Below, in pieces: positions 2,207 to 29,372 of a stretch of DNA of 64,000 bases (its first letter is position 1; every line of letters begins with the position of its first letter). Source of the stretch: an uncultured Pseudomonadota bacterium. GTDB lineage: Bacteria > Myxococcota_A > Polyangia > Fen-1088. The DNA is taken from assembly GCA_963725905.1 (NCBI GenBank), contig CAVSAG010000001.1, positions 380,748-444,747 on the forward strand, written 5' to 3'. Made by a program: the position numbers and the translations under genes. A model generated the notes under the pieces. That model was given only the letters and a program-made list of their open reading frames with translations. It ran no database searches and was not told the DNA's origin.

Positions 2207-4141
2207 ATGACTCGGCACGCATATCTTCGCCTTCGGCTCACCTCGTTTTCGCCCCTGGTCGTCTTGGCAGCCGCCAGCCTCCTGTCGTGCGCATCGCCCG
2301 GGAGCACGGGCGGCGGGTCGGGCGGGAGCAATGGCAGCGGCGGCAACAACAGCAGCGGCGGCAGCAACGGCAGCGGCGGCAGCAACAGCAGCGGCGGCAG
2401 CAACGGCAGCGGCGGCAGCAGCAGCAGCGGCGGCAGCAACGGCTCGGGCGGCAGCGTCTCGTCCGGCGGCAGCAATGGCTCGGGCGGCAGCACGGCCAAG
2501 GGCGGCAGCAACGGCTCGGGTGGCAGCCCGTCGTCGGGTGGCAGCGTCGGCTCTGGCGGCAGCTCGTCGTCGGGTGGCAGCAGTGGCTCTGGCGGCAGCT
2601 CGTCGTCCGGCGGCAGCGTCGGCAGCGGTGGCAGCTCGTCGTCGGGCGGCAGTGTCGGCTCTGGCGGCAGCAGCTCCAGCGGCGATCCGCCCGGTTACTA
2701 CCGCACCAGCGAATGGAACGTGAACAGTGTCGACTGGCACGGCTGCGTCTGGACCGGTATCGACAGCACCGTCTCCGGGAGCACGACGAGCATCACGCCC
2801 CAGGACTTCACGGCCAAGTCCCCGAACGGTGGCCCGTACGAAGTCAGCGGGAGCGTCTTCAACGACTACAACGCGGTCTCGCTCTTGGGATTCAACCTGA
2901 ACGAGGCTACGACGGGGAGCAGCACGCAGTGCAAATACAACCCCGCCGCAGCGACCCAGGCCGGTCCGCCGACGGCGACGATTCCCAGCTCCGCGACCGG
3001 CATCGCCGTGAACTGGAGCGCGAAGGTCGCGCCGCCCACGTCGTTCCGCATCCAGATTCAGGCGCCCGATGGCGCAACCAACGCGGCCGATCGCTGGTGC
3101 GCGACGATCACCGATGCGCAGGGCCCGAGCTTCATCCCGTTCTCGAGTTTCTACCCGCAGTGCTGGAATGTGGGCGTGTCGGGCATGAGCCCCGGCACCG
3201 CGTACGCGGGCCAAGCCATCGACGCCGTGGTGTTCCTCGTCCCCGGCACGATGTCCATGAAGGCACCCTTCGACTTCACGATCGTCGGCTTCGCCCCCGG
3301 CACCAGCAAGAGCGACGCGCCCGGTGGCGCAGCGGCTTGCGGGACCATCACGGGGACGCTCGGCTCATCGACCGCAGGGATGACCGCGTCCTACGCCCGC
3401 GCGGCGGTGACCGGGACGGACTGCAAGGAATACATCATCCAGAACAACAACTGGGGCAATCCCACCGGGTCGACCCAGCTCATCAACTACACGGGCAGCA
3501 GCTTCACGGTCCAGAGCAGCAGTGGGTCGGGCAGCAGCGCTCCCGCATCGTTCCCGTCCACTTACATAGGCGCGAACGGCAACATCGCCAACGGCACCTA
3601 CAACACCTGGTCCGACAGCGGCCTGCCAAAACAGATCAGCGCCATGCAGAGCGCGATGACCAACTTCACTTGGTCGGGTGGTTCATCCGGGGGAGATTTC
3701 AACGCGACCTACGACGTCTGGTTCGCGAAATCTCCGCCGACCGCCGGTGCCTACAACGACGGCATCTCCGGCTTCCTCATGGTCTGGCTCTACAAGCCGG
3801 GCAGCAGGCAGCCAATCGGTTCGAGCGTGCGTACAGCGAGCATCGCGGGCCACACCTGGAACGTGTGGGTCGGTCCCCGAGGTAACACCTCGACGGGTAC
3901 GGACCCCGCTTCGCGGCCGGTCATCTCCTACGTTGCGCAGGACTCGCCGGTCTCCAGCCTCTCGTTCAACCTGAAGGACTTCATTAGCGACGCCGTCAGC
4001 CACGCAGACACCAACAACGGCGTCACCGGACCGTTCTCCAGCAGCTGGTATCTGACCGACGTCTTCGCCGGCTTCGAGATCTGGAGCGGCAGCGCCGCGA
4101 CCAACCTGAAGAGCACCGGCTTCAGCTGCGTGGTCAAGTAG
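2207..4141 (+). CDS. Lipoprotein: Gly/Ser linker, CBM-like beta-sandwich, GH12-like domain
   Basis: RBS AAAGGAG; lipobox LLSC; (GGSNGS)n linker; GH12 motifs QNNNWG, YDVWF, LMVWL, QPIG, VFAGFEIW. Confidence 0.85.
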   Translation: MTRHAYLRLRLTSFSPLVVLAAASLLSCASPGSTGGGSGGSNGSGGNNSSGGSNGSGGSNSSGGSNGSGGSSSSGGSNGSGGSVSSGGSNGSGGSTAKGGSNGSGGSPSSGGSVGSGGSSSSGGSSGSGGSSSSGGSVGSGGSSSSGGSVGSGGSSSSGDPPGYYRTSEWNVNSVDWHGCVWTGIDSTVSGSTTSITPQDFTAKSPNGGPYEVSGSVFNDYNAVSLLGFNLNEATTGSSTQCKYNPAAATQAGPPTATIPSSATGIAVNWSAKVAPPTSFRIQIQAPDGATNAADRWCATITDAQGPSFIPFSSFYPQCWNVGVSGMSPGTAYAGQAIDAVVFLVPGTMSMKAPFDFTIVGFAPGTSKSDAPGGAAACGTITGTLGSSTAGMTASYARAAVTGTDCKEYIIQNNNWGNPTGSTQLINYTGSSFTVQSSSGSGSSAPASFPSTYIGANGNIANGTYNTWSDSGLPKQISAMQSAMTNFTWSGGSSGGDFNATYDVWFAKSPPTAGAYNDGISGFLMVWLYKPGSRQPIGSSVRTASIAGHTWNVWVGPRGNTSTGTDPASRPVISYVAQDSPVSSLSFNLKDFISDAVSHADTNNGVTGPFSSSWYLTDVFAGFEIWSGSAATNLKSTGFSCVVK

Positions 4142-4167
4142 CGTTCGAGACAGCCGCGTGTCGGCTG

Positions 4168-4884
4168 TCAGGTCTGAGGATCAGCCCAGTTGAAGTCGTA
4201 GCGTAGGTACAGCTCGTCGCCGACGCGCTCCATCGACGCGAGCGTCGGGTCGGGGATCTGGTCGGGGCTGAAGCCGGCGCCGTCGGCGACGGTGGGGGCG
4301 TGGGCGCCGCCGAGGATGCGCGGGACCAGGGTCAGGTAGAGGGCGTCGACGGCGCGGGCGGCGAAGAACTGGGCGCAGAGGGCACCACCGCCTTCGCAGA
4401 GCAGGGTGTGAATGCCGCGGGCGGTGAGCCAGGTCAAGAGGTCGGGGATGGGGACGCGCTCATCGCCCAGCTGGACCAGCTCGGCAACGGCGCCGAGGCC
4501 GGCGCGGGTTTCGGCGGGCATCGTGGCGGCGTGGACGACGATCGACGGGCCGCCGAGCGCGGGATCGAACATGCGCTGGTCGGGCGCGATCCCCACGCCG
4601 CTGGTCGTGACGACGATGCGCGTGGGCTCGGGGGCGCCACCTGAGCGGCGGTCCGCGCGCTGGGCCGCGGGGATGGCCAGATCGGGGTTGTCGGCGCGCA
4701 GGTTGGAGGCGCCGATCAGGATCGCGTCGACGTTGGAGCGCAAGGACAGCATGCGGCGGAAGTCCTCGCGGTGGCGCGACATCATGAACTTCCCCTGGCG
4801 TAGATCAGGGGCGGGGTTGATTTTGCCGTCGACGGACGAGGCGAAGTTGATCAGCACGCGCGGTCTGTGCGCCGTCGGGCTCAT
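4168..4884 (-). CDS. RibD C-terminal (pyrimidine reductase/DHFR-like) domain protein
   Basis: RPRVLINFASSVDGKI, DAILIGA..LRADNP, LLCEGGG..VDALYLTLVPRILGG. Confidence 0.85.
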   Translation of the reverse strand: MSPTAHRPRVLINFASSVDGKINPAPDLRQGKFMMSRHREDFRRMLSLRSNVDAILIGASNLRADNPDLAIPAAQRADRRSGGAPEPTRIVVTTSGVGIAPDQRMFDPALGGPSIVVHAATMPAETRAGLGAVAELVQLGDERVPIPDLLTWLTARGIHTLLCEGGGALCAQFFAARAVDALYLTLVPRILGGAHAPTVADGAGFSPDQIPDPTLASMERVGDELYLRYDFNWADPQT

Positions 4885-5273: not shown

Positions 5274-5762
5274 TCAATCTTCATGGCCGATCCGGTCGCG
5301 TAGCGCGAACAGGATGGGCAAGACCAGCTTGTCGCGGGCACGTCCGGCCGCGGCCTTGACGGAGATCAGAGTGTCGAGATCGAGGACTCGAATCTCGGAC
5401 AGTCCGTCGCTCAGCACCGTCGTGTGCGGGAGCAGATCCTCGTAGTCCCGACCGTCGTGCAGGACGCACAGCGGATCGAGCGGCCCGAGGGCGGTAGAGA
5501 GATTGAGCTGTCCGCGTCCGGCGAGCAGGTCGGCCGACGGTCGCAGGTCGCGACCCCGCAGAGTGGCGTCGAGCTTCGTGAGCAGATCCGCGAGCCGGCG
5601 GACATTGTCAGGCGTGCGCCGATGAACGATGTCGAGGTCCTGGGTAGTGATCGGCGCGCCGTGCAACACCGCAGCGGCTCCCCCCACCACAATGAACTCC
5701 ACCCCGGCTCCGAGCAGGGCCTGGACGAGCGCGTCGAGGTCAGCGCGGGCGGGATGAGACAT
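5274..5762 (-). CDS. Nucleotidyltransferase-family protein (putative TA component)
   Basis: FIVVGGAAAVLHG..TQDLDI motif and LISVKAAAGRARDK. Confidence 0.8.
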   Translation of the reverse strand: MSHPARADLDALVQALLGAGVEFIVVGGAAAVLHGAPITTQDLDIVHRRTPDNVRRLADLLTKLDATLRGRDLRPSADLLAGRGQLNLSTALGPLDPLCVLHDGRDYEDLLPHTTVLSDGLSEIRVLDLDTLISVKAAAGRARDKLVLPILFALRDRIGHED

Positions 5763-5955
5763 GCCTGAACTTCCCGAGCGCGCGGGCGGCATTGCTGCAG
5801 GCGCGCAGGCGCTCGCGGGGGGAGAGGCTCAAGGCCCAATCGAGCAGGGTCCCGTCGACCTCCCGGGCCGCTGCTTCCAGCAGCAAGGCGTCGATCGGTT
5901 CCGTCCGAGAAGGGCTCGGACGATCGGAGACCGATTGCTTGGGGCCGCCGTCCAT
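5740..5955 (-). CDS. Small (71 aa) partner protein of the nucleotidyltransferase
   Basis: VDGTLLDWALSLSPRERLRA segment resembles small proteins preceding such NTases; overlaps NTase start. Confidence 0.6.
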   Translation of the reverse strand: MDGGPKQSVSDRPSPSRTEPIDALLLEAAAREVDGTLLDWALSLSPRERLRACSNAARALGKFRHVSSRPR

Positions 5956-6004
5956 GCTCCCGAAGATGCCACAGCGAAACCTGCCACGACAGCGAAAGCA
6001 ACCT

Positions 6005-6267
6005 GTGACCGCCAGTGTCGCGCTGATCACCACCCCGGCGATGGCTGTGAGCGGCGTGCAAGCTACCTTCACCGGGCCGTGAACGGAACCATGTCCTGTC
6101 AACCAAACGGGACCGCGACCCTGTGCACGTGGCCCGCCGCGACCCCTGTGATGGCAGGGGCCTACCAGACGACGACCACTCAGGTTGAAGGTCACAATAC
6201 CTCCGCCGACATGCGGCTGTACGCTGGCATCTATCGAGCCATCCACCGTGGCGCTCAGCTCTACTGA
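6005..6267 (+). pseudogene. Probable fragment of a secreted Cys-containing protein
   Basis: VSGVQATFTGP* continues with a 1-nt shift as VNGTMSCQPNGTATLCTWP; no clear start or RBS. Confidence 0.3.
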
Positions 6268-9552: not shown

Positions 9553-9653
9553 GGGGTCTCGTCAGGCGGCCCCGCTTCCTCCGCCGGGCGGCCAATCCGT
9601 CGCGTCTTGCCGCCGGTCGTCTGGCCGGCGGAAGACCGCCTCTCGCTCGTGCG
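9553..9653 (-). pseudogene. Internally deleted relic of the antitoxin gene at 11442-11789
   Basis: Matches about 11432-11510 joined to 11600-11627 across GGCGG; encodes PPARRPAARRDGLAARRRKRAA*. Confidence 0.75.
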
Positions 9654-9828
9654 ATTTTTGGCAGCTACGAGCGGCACAGACCAGAAGAGACGGATGGCGA
9701 CGGACGAGACGCGCGTGATACATAGGGCCCGCAATGGCGGGAGGCAGAACTCGATCGGTCGCTTGTTCCGCCTATCCCCAGTGATATCGAGGACGTCGTG
9801 ACTTCACTACAGCTATGGGAGGTTCGAG

Positions 9829-11319
9829 ATGGATTTTTCGAGGGTTAGGAGAAGTGTCGTAGGCGGGATGTTGGTGTTGTGGGCTGCCGGCGCGGCCTCG
9901 GGCTGCGCGCCCGATTCAGCCGACGACGGGGACGTCACCACCGTCACCGTGGCGCTCACCACCGTCCCGACCGGCGTGCAATGCGTTCGCCTCGTCGCCA
10001 CACCAACCTCCGGCTCGGCGACCACCAAGACCTTCACCGTCGCTGCGGGCTCGTCGTCGGCCAGCCTGCAGATTGGCCCGTTCACGCCGGGGAACTACAC
10101 GCTGTCCGGCGACGCGTTCAACGTGGCCTGCACCAGCATCAGCGGTGTGGCGCCGTGGACCGCGGATTCGGTGCCGGTGACCGTACGGACCGGCCAGGCG
10201 GCCACGGTGACCATGACCTTCCGTAAGGAAAACCCGGTCACGGTGAACGTCAACTTCGTCAACAACGTGCTCGGTCTGTCGATGAGCTTCATGAACGGCT
10301 TCGTCGTCACCGACAGTGGCATCCTTCAGACGGGCGTCATCCCCGGAACGGTCTCGTACACGCGGGCCAACTTCGCGGCCTTCGACTCGAGCTCGATCCC
10401 GGGCAACGCCGTCGCGTCCATCGCCGCCTCCAACAACGCCGTGTGCGCCATCCGCGTCGATGGCACGATCTGGTGCTGGGGGTCGAACCCGTACGGCGAG
10501 ACCGGTCCCGGCATCGCGCTCGGCGGCTCCTCGTCGACGCCGGTGCAGCTCACCGCCCTGGGCGGAGCCACCCAGATCGCCGCCGGTGCCAATCATTTCT
10601 GCGCCGTCGCGTCGAACGTCCTTTGGTGCTGGGGCCGCAACGAATCGGGCGAGCTCGGCAACAACACCACCGCCAACAGCACCAATCCGGTGAGGGTCCA
10701 GAACATCGTGCCCGTGCGGAGCTTGTCCCTGGGCTTCTCGTCGTCTTATGCCGTGAGCACCAGCGGAACGCTCTTCGCCTGGGGGAGCAACGCCTCGGGT
10801 CAGCTCGGAGACGGCACGTTCGTGAACCGGTTGATCGCAACCTCGATGCTGGAGAGCGTTGGCGTGATATCGGTTGCCGGCGGCGGCAACCACGCCTGCG
10901 ATCAGCGCGCCGATGGGAGCGTCCACTGCTGGGGTCAGAACTTCAGCGGCCAACTCGGCAACGGGACGACGTCAGCCAGCTCGGCCACCCCGGTGGTGGT
11001 GAGCGGTCTGACGGCGAAGCAGCTCGTGGCCTCGTACTCCAGCAATTGCGCTCTGACCACTTCGGGCCTGACGCAGTGCTGGGGCTCGAACCGCTACGGA
11101 GCGGTCGGAGACTCGACCGCGGTGGATTGGACCACCCCCGTCTCGGTCAGCCTTGGCTCCGTCTCACTCACCACGCTGGTCGGTTCGAGCACCATCGACA
11201 CCAACTGCGGCCTCTCGACCACCACGGACGTGTGGTGCTGGGGCGAAGACAATGCGGGCAACCTTGGCGACGGCACGATGAATTCCCAGTTCGCGCCCGT
11301 CCGCGCCGTGCTGCAGTAA
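9829..11319 (+). CDS. RCC1-repeat beta-propeller lipoprotein
   Basis: GGAGG RBS; ASGC lipobox; repeated WCWGxNxxGxLG motifs. Confidence 0.9.
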   Translation: MDFSRVRRSVVGGMLVLWAAGAASGCAPDSADDGDVTTVTVALTTVPTGVQCVRLVATPTSGSATTKTFTVAAGSSSASLQIGPFTPGNYTLSGDAFNVACTSISGVAPWTADSVPVTVRTGQAATVTMTFRKENPVTVNVNFVNNVLGLSMSFMNGFVVTDSGILQTGVIPGTVSYTRANFAAFDSSSIPGNAVASIAASNNAVCAIRVDGTIWCWGSNPYGETGPGIALGGSSSTPVQLTALGGATQIAAGANHFCAVASNVLWCWGRNESGELGNNTTANSTNPVRVQNIVPVRSLSLGFSSSYAVSTSGTLFAWGSNASGQLGDGTFVNRLIATSMLESVGVISVAGGGNHACDQRADGSVHCWGQNFSGQLGNGTTSASSATPVVVSGLTAKQLVASYSSNCALTTSGLTQCWGSNRYGAVGDSTAVDWTTPVSVSLGSVSLTTLVGSSTIDTNCGLSTTTDVWCWGEDNAGNLGDGTMNSQFAPVRAVLQ

Positions 11320-11441: not shown

Positions 11442-11789
11442 TCAGGCGGCCCGTTTCTTCCGCCGGGCAGCCAAGCCGCCGCGTCTTGCCGCTGGTCGTC
11501 TGGCCGGCGGTTCGAAGCTGATATTGAGGGTGAGCCCGAGCGCCGAAGCGGCGCGCTGGAGAGAATCGAGCGTGACTCCGGTGCGCGTCGGATCCAGCAG
11601 GCGGTAGACCGCCTCTCGGCTCGTGCGCATGCGCCTCGCCATCTCGGACGGTGAGATCTTCTTGGCCTTCATGGCCTGCTTGATGTCGTGCGCGAGGACC
11701 TTCTTCTGTACGCCGGCACGGTGCTCGTGAAGCTCCCCGAGCTCGTCGAAGAGCTCCTCCAGCTCGTCCCACGGTGGTCCGATTTTCAT
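11442..11789 (-). CDS. XRE/HTH antitoxin (partner type of Gp49/RelE-like toxins)
   Basis: KKVLAHDIKQAMKAKKISPSEMARRMRTSREAVYRLLDP..VTLDSLQRAASALG. Confidence 0.8.
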   Translation of the reverse strand: MKIGPPWDELEELFDELGELHEHRAGVQKKVLAHDIKQAMKAKKISPSEMARRMRTSREAVYRLLDPTRTGVTLDSLQRAASALGLTLNISFEPPARRPAARRGGLAARRKKRAA

Positions 11790-11925
11790 GTGCCCTCCTT
11801 CATTCGACGCTGGGCTAGCGCGATGTCCGCCGGCGGCGTCTTCAATCTCGGACCGGTGCCACGCCGGTCCGCGTTCGATAGAACCGGAGCCGGAGGCGGC
11901 GTGGCGTCAACCCGCCTTCGCTCAC
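11786..11925 (-). pseudogene. Gp49-like (RelE/ParE superfamily) toxin with internal deletion
   Basis: GTG at 11925 reads MSEGGLTPRRLRLRFYRTRTGVAPVRD, joined out of frame at 11843/11842 to KTPPADIALAQRRMKEGT*, whose stop overlaps the antitoxin ATG. Confidence 0.75.
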
Positions 11926-11931
11926 TGCAAG

Positions 11932-11953
11932 AGTGTACTATTAATAGGACACT
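11932..11953. promoter_or_regulatory. 22-bp palindromic operator overlapping the -10 box of the leftward TA operon
   Basis: AGTGT-a-CTATTAATAG-g-ACACT; TACACT on minus strand 6 nt before GTG. Confidence 0.75.
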
Positions 11954-11990
11954 TAGGCCAGGGCGCGCGGGCGAAAAGAGGGACACAGAA

Positions 11991-12022
11991 ACTACGTTAA
12001 CAGAGTACACTGTTAACGTAGT
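11991..12022. promoter_or_regulatory. 32-bp palindromic operator of the rightward TA operon
   Basis: Perfect 13-bp arms ACTACGTTAACAG / CTGTTAACGTAGT; overlaps TAGTAT box at 12019-12024. Confidence 0.8.
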
Positions 12023-12031
12023 ATTTTGACC

Positions 12032-12092
12032 GTGGTCGAAGTTGTCGCCGAGCGAATCTGGGAGCAGTCCGACGCGAAAGGGGAAGCAAATG
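12032..12092 (+). pseudogene. RelE/HigB-like toxin reduced to fused N- and C-terminal stubs
   Basis: GTG 7 nt after TAGTAT reads MVEVVA-ERIWEQ, resembling the two ends of such toxins. Confidence 0.55.
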
Positions 12093-12392
12093 AAGACTCA
12101 CCGCTGGGAAGACATTCGGCACAAGAGGACGCCCGAGCGCGAGGCGGCGGTTGAGCGGCTTCGTGACGAGATGGTCGAGCAGGTCACGCTCCGGCGGCTT
12201 CGGGACCTCCTCGGGCTCACCCAGGTCGAGCTAGCGGCTCGGATGGAAGCATCGCAGGCGCAGCTCTCGGCGATCGAGAAACGGGACGACCGGCTCGTTT
12301 CGACGATGCGGAAGTACGTCGAAGCGCTCGGCGGCAAGCTCCGCCTGCAGGCGGTGTTCGAGGGCGGCAAGGTCCTCGAGATCTCTGAGTAG
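12090..12392 (+). CDS. XRE-family HTH antitoxin (HigA-like)
   Basis: LRRLRDLLGLTQVELAARMEASQAQLSAIEKRDDRLVSTMRKYVEALGGKLRLQAVF. Confidence 0.85.
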   Translation: MKTHRWEDIRHKRTPEREAAVERLRDEMVEQVTLRRLRDLLGLTQVELAARMEASQAQLSAIEKRDDRLVSTMRKYVEALGGKLRLQAVFEGGKVLEISE

Positions 12393-12406
12393 CCGCCCTT
12401 AAATTC

Positions 12407-12483
12407 TGGGGTGAGTGACGGGGATTGAACCCGCAACATCCAGAGCCACAGTCTGGCGCTCTACCAATTGAGCTACACCCACC
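12407..12483 (-). tRNA. tRNA-His (GTG)
   Basis: Cloverleaf with acceptor GTGGGTG/CACTCAC, G-1, anticodon loop CTGTGGC, TTCAATC, encoded CCA. Confidence 0.97.
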
Positions 12484-28490: not shown

Positions 28491-29372
28491 CTAGAGGAGG
28501 CCGAGCTCTTTGAGCTGCGCCTGCAGCTTGTCGCGGTACTGCGCCGCCAGCGGGTAGAGCGGCGGCCGGATCTCCTCGGCGATCCGTCCCATCATCGCCA
28601 GCGCCGTCTTGACCGGGATCGGGTTGGCCTCGACGAACAGCCCCTCGCCGAGCGGCAAGAGCCGGTAGTGCAGCTCCCGCGCCTTCTTCCAGTCGCCGGC
28701 GGCCGCCGCGTCCCACATCGCGCTCATCTGCTTGGGAGCGACGTTGCTGACCACCGAGATGACCCCGCGCGCCCCGAGCGCGAACAGCGGGAACGCGGTG
28801 GCGTCGTCGCCGGAGAGCACCGCCACCTGGTCGTTCTTCGAGCCGAGCTGGGCCAAAACCTGAGACGCGCGCAGCGCCGAGCCGGTCGCCTCCTTGACGC
28901 CCACCACCTGGGGGAGCTGGGCGAGGCGCGCGATCGTCTCGGGGAGGAGATCGCAGGCCGTGCGGCCGGGGACGTTGTAGAGCACGCTCGGCAGCGGCGC
29001 CGCCTCGACGACCGTCTTGAAGTGGCGGTAGAGGTGCTCCTGCCCCGGCCGGTTGTAGTACGGGGTGACCAGCAAGAGACCGTCGGCGCCGACCTTCTTG
29101 GCGGCGACCGACATCTCGATCGTCTCGCGCGTCGAGTTGGAGCCGGTCCCAGCGATCACGGGGACGCGCTTCTTCGCCGCCTCGACCACCAGCTGGATGA
29201 CCCGCAGGTGCTCTTCGTTGGTGAGCGTGGGCGACTCGCCCGTCGTGCCGACGGGAACGAGGCCGTCGACGCCGCTGGCGATCTGCTCGTCGACGAGGCG
29301 GCGCAGCGCCTCCTCGTCGACCGCGTCGCCGCGCAGGGGCGTCACGAGCGCGGTGATGACTCCGGTGAACAT
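28491..29372 (-). CDS. dapA: 4-hydroxy-tetrahydrodipicolinate synthase
   Basis: GTTGES, TPYYN, LYNVPGRT, GVKEA, NPIPVK. Confidence 0.97.
   Translation of the reverse strand: MFTGVITALVTPLRGDAVDEEALRRLVDEQIASGVDGLVPVGTTGESPTLTNEEHLRVIQLVVEAAKKRVPVIAGTGSNSTRETIEMSVAAKKVGADGLLLVTPYYNRPGQEHLYRHFKTVVEAAPLPSVLYNVPGRTACDLLPETIARLAQLPQVVGVKEATGSALRASQVLAQLGSKNDQVAVLSGDDATAFPLFALGARGVISVVSNVAPKQMSAMWDAAAAGDWKKARELHYRLLPLGEGLFVEANPIPVKTALAMMGRIAEEIRPPLYPLAAQYRDKLQAQLKELGLL

Follow-up and report, generated by a model that had tools for sequence, protein, structure and literature searches.

Two divergent HigBA-type operons, probably in toxin-first decay, beside a tRNA-His gene of an uncultured bacterium

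A toxin–antitoxin (TA) module that has lost its toxin and kept its antitoxin is in a common and well-documented phase of decay. According to excerpts of PMC7167474, deletions and nonsense mutations bring about the decay of chromosomal TA systems, and drift gives rise to inactive toxin mutants; the same excerpts describe the ccdO157 system of Escherichia coli, a conserved locus at which some lineages have had the toxin inactivated through deletions or nonsense mutations. In Klebsiella pneumoniae, 2253 orphan antitoxins have been counted (PMC7192599), which the cited part of that paper discusses as decay products or possible anti-addiction elements, and the anti-addiction idea for antitoxins is in print in passages of PMC7167474 and in the discussion of PMC7192599. 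Here, we describe positions 11442-12392 of a 64-kb window (the whole stretch of DNA that was analysed, G000:C1:380748-444747, from a genome of 9 contigs with a completeness of 79%), which hold two divergent HigBA-like type II modules adjoining tRNA-His, each consisting of a Gp49-family toxin followed by a helix-turn-helix (HTH) antitoxin. We consider it probable that the two operons, which lie in a hypervariable island, are in toxin-first decay, and that the right orphan antitoxin is still constrained. The locus is another example of known TA decay, in the Gp49/HigBA family of uncultured soil and peat bacteria.

Among described systems, the HigBA modules represented by the Protein Data Bank (PDB) entries 6af3, 7ewc and 6lty share with this locus the toxin-first gene order, the overlap of the toxin stop codon with the antitoxin ATG (as read in relatives of the window), Gp49 toxins, HTH antitoxins and a palindrome at each putative promoter. 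In contrast to these modules, both toxins of the window are without their core, and the similarity to the solved proteins is low. The left toxin matches 6af3 ('HigB toxin') weakly, with E 0.00022, and the right antitoxin matches 7ewc ('Putative antitoxin HigA2') at 7.5e-09 and 6lty ('HigA3') at 1.1e-06; a sequence search of the PDB returned no solved relative of the right toxin or of the left antitoxin. The likeness to ccdO157, as excerpted in PMC7167474, lies in an antitoxin that outlasts its toxin and in a position within a variable genomic region. Unlike that system as described there, the toxins here are Gp49/HigB rather than CcdB, two modules stand back to back, and the genomes, from uncultured soil and peat bacteria, are known from sequence alone. 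Compared with the Klebsiella survey, in the part of PMC7192599 cited here, the present locus allows deletion junctions, the order of events and post-deletion substitutions to be read.

The stubs in the window (27 amino acids (aa), a 74-aa frame and 42 aa) matched no Pfam or NCBIfam family, whereas the full-length orthologous toxins of relatives match Pfam Gp49 (PF05973) at 2e-20 for the left toxin (genome G024) and 6.3e-16 for the right toxin (G018), indicating that the window contains remnants and not functional pairs. The only NCBIfam match of the full-length toxins is a weak one, under the cutoff, to a RelE/ParE toxin model. The stubs align with these full-length toxins, in agreement with an earlier annotation of the stretch (hereafter the original prediction), which had read them as the ends of Gp49-family toxins. 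In each operon, an antitoxin with a recognisable HTH domain lies directly 3' of the toxin remnant (Table 1). At orthologous loci of some relatives the toxin is intact, whereas here it is inactivated and the antitoxin open reading frame (ORF) is still open.

The endpoints and microhomologies of the two deletions were mapped by alignment. In the left module, 235 nt are missing relative to the intact 124-aa toxin of G024 (L021 2790-3164), which is also intact in G009 and G005, and the microhomology is 1 nt, a single shared G. Since 235 is not a multiple of three, the reading frame shifts, a TGA (11842-11844) sits on the junction (junction base 11843), and the C-terminal remnant is out of frame with the N-terminal stub. 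The two ends had been predicted to be fused; they are joined in the DNA, but the frame shift and the stop codon on the junction leave no fused protein. BLAST alignments of five relatives break into pieces at 11843 or at 11843/11847, with 233-271 nt between the pieces in those relatives. The stop codon of the remnant overlaps the antitoxin ATG, as the toxin stop does in relatives, and the sequence AAGGAGG stands immediately 5' of that ATG. The DNA of the left antitoxin gene is 82-96% identical to its orthologues in 8 genomes of the genus.

The right toxin has lost 282 nt (94 codons), in frame, relative to G018, with a junction within TCGC at 12045-12048. The break lies between ATCGC and GACGG near the start and between GATCGC and CGAGCG near the end, leaving 4-5 nt of microhomology in the form of TCGC/ATCGC repeats. 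The intact toxin has 114 aa in G018 (L019 2212-2556) and in G001, and the GTG at 12032 aligns with the TTG/GTG start codons of relatives. The short ORF from this GTG reads MVEVVAERIWEQ; an extra 1-nt loss and two substitutions near 12068-12071 shift its frame, which then extends 64 nt into the antitoxin gene. The predicted MVEVVA-ERIWEQ stub is therefore present from GTG 12032, with the additional frame-shifting loss. The XRE-type antitoxin gene stops 14 nt from tRNA-His (12392 vs. 12407), as had been predicted, and the two antitoxin genes, likewise predicted to be intact, are both open and both keep a purine-rich ribosome-binding (Shine-Dalgarno) site just 5' of the ATG. Nearly all of the predicted elements were found in their predicted places.

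The right deletion is real, since its junction recurs in two metagenome contigs (L065 and L066) and in one contig from a public sequencing run (X5, record 29), whose 566 nt bridge 12032-12431. The metagenome comparison comprised 12 close loci among 20 returned. One of them, L066, matches the window in its back-to-back layout and its right junction, but its left toxin is intact and reads in one frame of 124 aa, which indicates that the two deletions were separate events, with the right one first and the left one later. Two independent toxin deletions, as had been proposed, are thus borne out. Contigs from four public DNA runs were compared with the stretch, none of which covers the whole of it, and the uncovered parts carry no information. 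Another X5 contig (record 28) departs from the window exactly at 11843. Contigs of runs X1 and X3 diverge immediately to the left of 12045, the behaviour expected of an allele with no deletion or with a different one. In a search of public sequencing runs for the source reads, the highest share of sampled words was 0.29, with no run at half or above, and six RNA runs contained small shares (0.09-0.14).

The genomes of the genus and the metagenome contigs together display the two modules in many states. The 951-nt stretch was matched in 15 of 26 genus genomes at E <= 1e-10; the left module is present in G000 (the genome of the window), G020, G024, G018, G021, G009, G019 and G005, as well as at a contig end in G017, and the right module in G000, G018, G001, G023 and G020. 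In the 8 genus genomes in which the left toxin was read, it is intact in the three named above. G020 has a deletion between 10-nt repeats (GCGCTGGCCC and GCGTTGGCCC), the gene of G018 is truncated at its 5' end, that of G019 contains a 1-nt gap, and that of G021 a duplication and a frameshift; the last two assemblies consist of few contigs, and their two small lesions could therefore be errors. The right toxin is intact in 2 of its 5 genomes (G018 and G001), has an out-of-frame internal deletion in G023, and in G020 has lost both ends and contains a stop codon. Across the 12 close metagenome contigs it is full length in 5 and off the contig end in 1; 3 hold stubs, 1 has both genes broken, and 2 hold antitoxin remnants. 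One of these stubs (L062) has its junction about 10 nt from that of the window. For each toxin, at least four distinct deletions or truncations are seen among the relatives.

The antitoxin genes are also found in decay. In L069 both genes of the right pair are broken, the antitoxin being partly deleted, in L070 and L071 only antitoxin residues 57-99 are left, and a more distant locus (L078) keeps a 26-aa antitoxin remnant. The right antitoxin of G020 has a TAG at codon 36 (Q36 to stop), and a 4-nt insertion abolishes the stop codon of the left antitoxin of G018. The window itself contains a remnant of a second left-type antitoxin gene, in which about 74 nt of the 3' end and tail are joined to a 22-nt inner piece and the 94 nt between them, bounded by GGCGG repeats, are missing. 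Related soil and peat genomes and metagenome contigs thus provide a clean natural series for the death of a chromosomal TA module, from intact pairs through varied toxin deletions and orphan antitoxins to remnants, in which the order of events (toxin first, antitoxin later) can be read directly. On a small scale, the series also tests whether antitoxins remain functional once orphaned; the right one is still constrained. The principle is already established for other families and no new mechanism is involved, so that the value of the locus lies in a documented example and in constructs for cross-neutralisation.

Table 1. Features of the TA locus and its surroundings (positions in the window)
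Feature	Position	Strand	Evidence or remark
Remnant of second left-type antitoxin gene	9558..9654	-	match G000:C1:390305-390378, 91%
Left antitoxin, intact, 115 aa, Cro/C1-type HTH, basic C-terminal tail	11442..11789	-	ORF; Pfam HTH_26 1.9e-06
C-terminal remnant of left Gp49/HigB-like toxin, ..KTPPADIALAQRRMKEGT	11786..11843	-	aligns with last codons of intact G024 toxin
N-terminal stub of left toxin, GTG start at 11925, 27 aa ending ..FYRTRTGVAPVRD	11842..11925	-	alignment to relatives
Left palindrome, putative operator of left operon	11932..11953		overlapping 12-nt arms, 92% complementarity
Right palindrome, putative operator, overlaps predicted right promoter	11991..12022		16+16 nt, 94% complementarity
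Right toxin stub, GTG start, MVEVVA joined to ERIWEQ	12032..12154	+	compared with intact 114-aa toxins of G018 and G001
Right antitoxin, intact, 100 aa, XRE-type HTH, HigA2/HigA3-like	12090..12392	+	Pfam HTH_3 1.3e-06
tRNA-His (GTG)	12407..12482	-	3' end faces right antitoxin

The two orphan antitoxins differ in the selection that they appear to be under. For the right antitoxin, the ratio of nonsynonymous to synonymous substitution rates (dN/dS) is 0-0.07 in all pairs among five genomes. The three alleles with the same junction (G000, L065 and L066; 3 pairs) differ by 6-12 synonymous and 3-4 nonsynonymous changes, giving a ratio of the proportions of nonsynonymous and synonymous differences (pN/pS) of 0.08-0.17, and binomial tests against neutrality give P values from 0.01 to 1e-05. 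Provided that the junction is identical by descent, these differences postdate the loss of the toxin, and the orphan has stayed under constraint since then. One change at the start of the HTH, Q36R, is unique to G000 among 12 alleles. For the left antitoxin, dN/dS is 0.07-0.21 in deep pairs and 0.7-0.9 in pairs among G000, G020 and G024, the latter on very few changes. The changes unique to G000 are 3 nonsynonymous (R7W, L23H and one in the tail) and 0 synonymous, and the change at codon 104 in G000 is E104G; the left antitoxin of L066, whose toxin is intact, has 3 unique synonymous and 0 nonsynonymous changes. Both R7W and L23H lie N-terminal to the HTH (residues 36-88), and in HigA-type antitoxins the region N-terminal to the HTH often binds the toxin. 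Judged by these substitutions, the newer left orphan antitoxin looks relaxed. Neutral evolution of the antitoxins, which the original prediction had named as a result that would count against it, is not what the right gene displays at its pN/pS, and the left gene has the count of three to none just given.

The two palindromes (Table 1) were present as predicted, and so was a promoter for the right operon; a consensus scan gave TTAACA-16-TAGTAT at 11997-12024 (-35 at 11997-12002, -10 at 12019-12024) for the right operon and no promoter for the left one, for which a -10 box had also been proposed. The half-sites of the left palindrome read GTCCTA and TAGTAC(ACT) on the minus strand; GTCCTA and TAGTACACT do not vary among the 6 genomes compared, unlike the 4 central bases. 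An argument from rarity was dropped for this palindrome, because the window contains 21 palindromes of 11+11 nt, compared with 3-13 across 10 simulated windows. Its support comes from position and half-site conservation, and only the right palindrome is unusual by count, as one of 2 palindromes of 16+16 nt with at most one mismatch in the window. The other one, at 29289-29321, is GC-rich (..CTCGTCGACGAGGCGG / CGCCTCCTCGTCGAC..).

The arms ACTACTT/AAGTAGT of the right palindrome are kept in 11 other alleles, with a single mismatch in two of these. A symmetric T>G / A>C exchange, which places G and C at the sixth positions of the arms, is confined to G000, as is a centre that renders the whole 32 bp almost perfectly palindromic. 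Given the unique Q36R, this change could mean continued selection on a repressor-operator pair; it could equally be a templated correction within a quasi-palindrome and thus purely mutational. GTACACT, a 7-nt half-site of the left palindrome, reappears in the middle of the right one (11929-11939 and 12004-12014), again in G000 only, L065 and L066 having GTATCTT there. This sharing may reflect chance, cross-regulation or templated mutation.

Toxin-first decay can be accounted for as follows. Loss of the antitoxin is not tolerated by a cell whose toxin is still active, and the toxin is therefore lost first. Mutations that abolish the toxin would cost nothing or even be favoured, whereas those that abolish the antitoxin would be lethal for as long as the toxin works, and the deletions that survive would be those which leave the promoter-operator and the antitoxin with its ribosome-binding site untouched. 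Such survivorship explains the pattern without positive selection. Orphan antitoxins left in this way would probably still be made from their own promoters and still bind the palindromes as repressors, and in time they would be expected to decay too, as the relatives and the second left-type copy at 9558-9654 illustrate. The older right orphan, being under purifying selection, probably keeps some use.

Several points weigh against this account. The left junction is seen in this assembly alone, and the source reads were not found. Continued expression of the orphans and their binding to the palindromes are what we infer, as probable, from the retained sequence features. The estimate of constraint after the deletion would be weakened if the right junction recurred independently at its short repeat or if alleles with it recombined with intact ones, either of which could have happened. 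The purifying selection on the right orphan is not mere drift, unlike what pure neutral decay would give. Finally, changes of the right antitoxin that are unique to one allele number 15 synonymous and 8 nonsynonymous (including the G020 stop) where the toxin is broken, compared with 11 synonymous and 1 nonsynonymous where it is intact or probably intact, a contrast that is not significant (Fisher P = 0.12) and amounts to a trend towards relaxation, not a demonstration of it.

The original prediction had gone further and proposed that the antitoxin-only state was itself selected, as a compact immunity (anti-addiction) cassette against Gp49 toxins that arrive from plasmids, phages, islands or paralogues. 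We regard this as unlikely. The constraint on the right antitoxin among same-junction alleles speaks for it, as do the different lesions of each toxin, at least four apiece, that spare antitoxin and promoter, the preserved symmetry of the right palindrome, and the publication of the general idea in the two papers excerpted above. The genome also holds possible targets, as contig 2 carries a paralogous right-type pair with both frames open (toxin C2:943215-943547, 53% identical, and adjacent antitoxin, 47%) and a second paralogous toxin with an open frame (C2:1375769-1376089, 46%). However, cross-neutralisation of paralogous toxins is uncertain at 46-53% identity, and no close intact copy of either lost toxin was found elsewhere in this genome. 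Moreover, survivorship alone predicts that only antitoxin-sparing lesions will be visible, members of both antitoxin families also occur in broken or remnant form, and the changes unique to G000 over both antitoxins are 4 nonsynonymous to 0 synonymous. What stands of the proposed cassette is the constraint on the right antitoxin; the broken and remnant antitoxins and the three nonsynonymous changes of the left one do not fit it. A similarly doubtful, more specific version is that the right antitoxin and its operator kept evolving after toxin loss as a selected repressor-operator pair, that is, as an antitoxin-only immunity cassette. It is drawn from Q36R, the symmetric operator change and the more perfect palindrome, all confined to G000, together with the low pN/pS and the repeated antitoxin-sparing deletions; if true, the orphan HigA genes at the tRNA-His island would be a maintained defence against incoming Gp49 toxins and not debris.

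It is improbable that the two HTH proteins have instead taken on a new role as ordinary transcription factors, controlling genes nearby or elsewhere, as the neighbouring genes differ among genomes with the same antitoxins. The HTH part of the left antitoxin is unchanged, its R7W and L23H changes lying outside it, which would suit such a role, as would the purifying selection on the right antitoxin and the sharing of GTACACT between the two palindromes of G000. Still further from likely, and in our estimation very improbable indeed, is that the deletions are assembly artefacts and that the organism really has full-length toxins. The fragmentation and incompleteness of the genome, the lack of source reads and of an independent copy of the left junction, and the departure of X5 record 28 from the window at 11843, as expected of an undeleted allele, are compatible with it. 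So is a left-type paralogous pair on contig 6 (L049, G000:C6:457146-460355, at 997-1822), whose toxin reads in two frames, which could be a real frameshift or an assembly indel error. Against an artefact, three contigs built from other data (L065, L066 and the one from X5) share the right junction; the clean losses of 235 and 282 nt lie in unique sequence, which leaves no repeat to collapse; and other genomes have different deletions of the same genes. Toxin-first decay remains the reading that we prefer.

The surroundings of the two operons point to a hypervariable island that adjoins tRNA-His. Genus genomes in which the modules are absent are homologous to the window again from about 12401 rightwards (tRNA-His, tRNA-Arg and a phosphoserine-phosphatase-like gene) and, on the other side, left of about 5240 in a conserved gene block. 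The distance between these flanks ranges from about 1.6 kb (G011) through 6.8 kb (G021) and 7.2 kb (the present genome) to 10.4 kb (G001), so that the tRNA hotspot named in the original prediction has its counterpart in a variable island bounded next to tRNA-His. Here the island encodes, among other ORFs, an FG-GAP repeat protein and an RCC1-repeat protein. A Pfam scan of three large island ORFs gave no integrase match, with smaller ORFs at 5274-6267 outside the scan, and the window showed no second copy of the tRNA end. In G001 (L023, G001:C7), about 1.7 kb are inserted between the right antitoxin and tRNA-His, and a second partial copy consists of the antitoxin 3' end and 26 nt of the tRNA-His 3' end (L023 6896-7069 and 2186-4519). 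This second copy resembles an att-type repeat of an integrative element ending in the right module.

The modules also occur in other arrangements, and their back-to-back layout in the window and in L066 is one among several. In G018 (L019, G018:C190), a 222-aa ORF at 1342-2010 lies between both modules. In G020 (L020, G020:C2), a 104-aa ORF at 3944-4258 takes that place, and it resembles, by eye, a pterin-4a-carbinolamine dehydratase, for which it is a candidate. In the window, the remnant of the second left-type antitoxin gene and the intact copy at 11442-11789 bracket the RCC1-repeat gene (9829-11319), which suggests tandem accretion of island segments carrying the left module. In both operons, TAGTA(C/T) stands, by eye, 7-9 nt before the GTG and is not accompanied by a Shine-Dalgarno site (11919-11932 and 12019-12034); the toxin cistrons may thus have had leaderless or nearly leaderless mRNAs.

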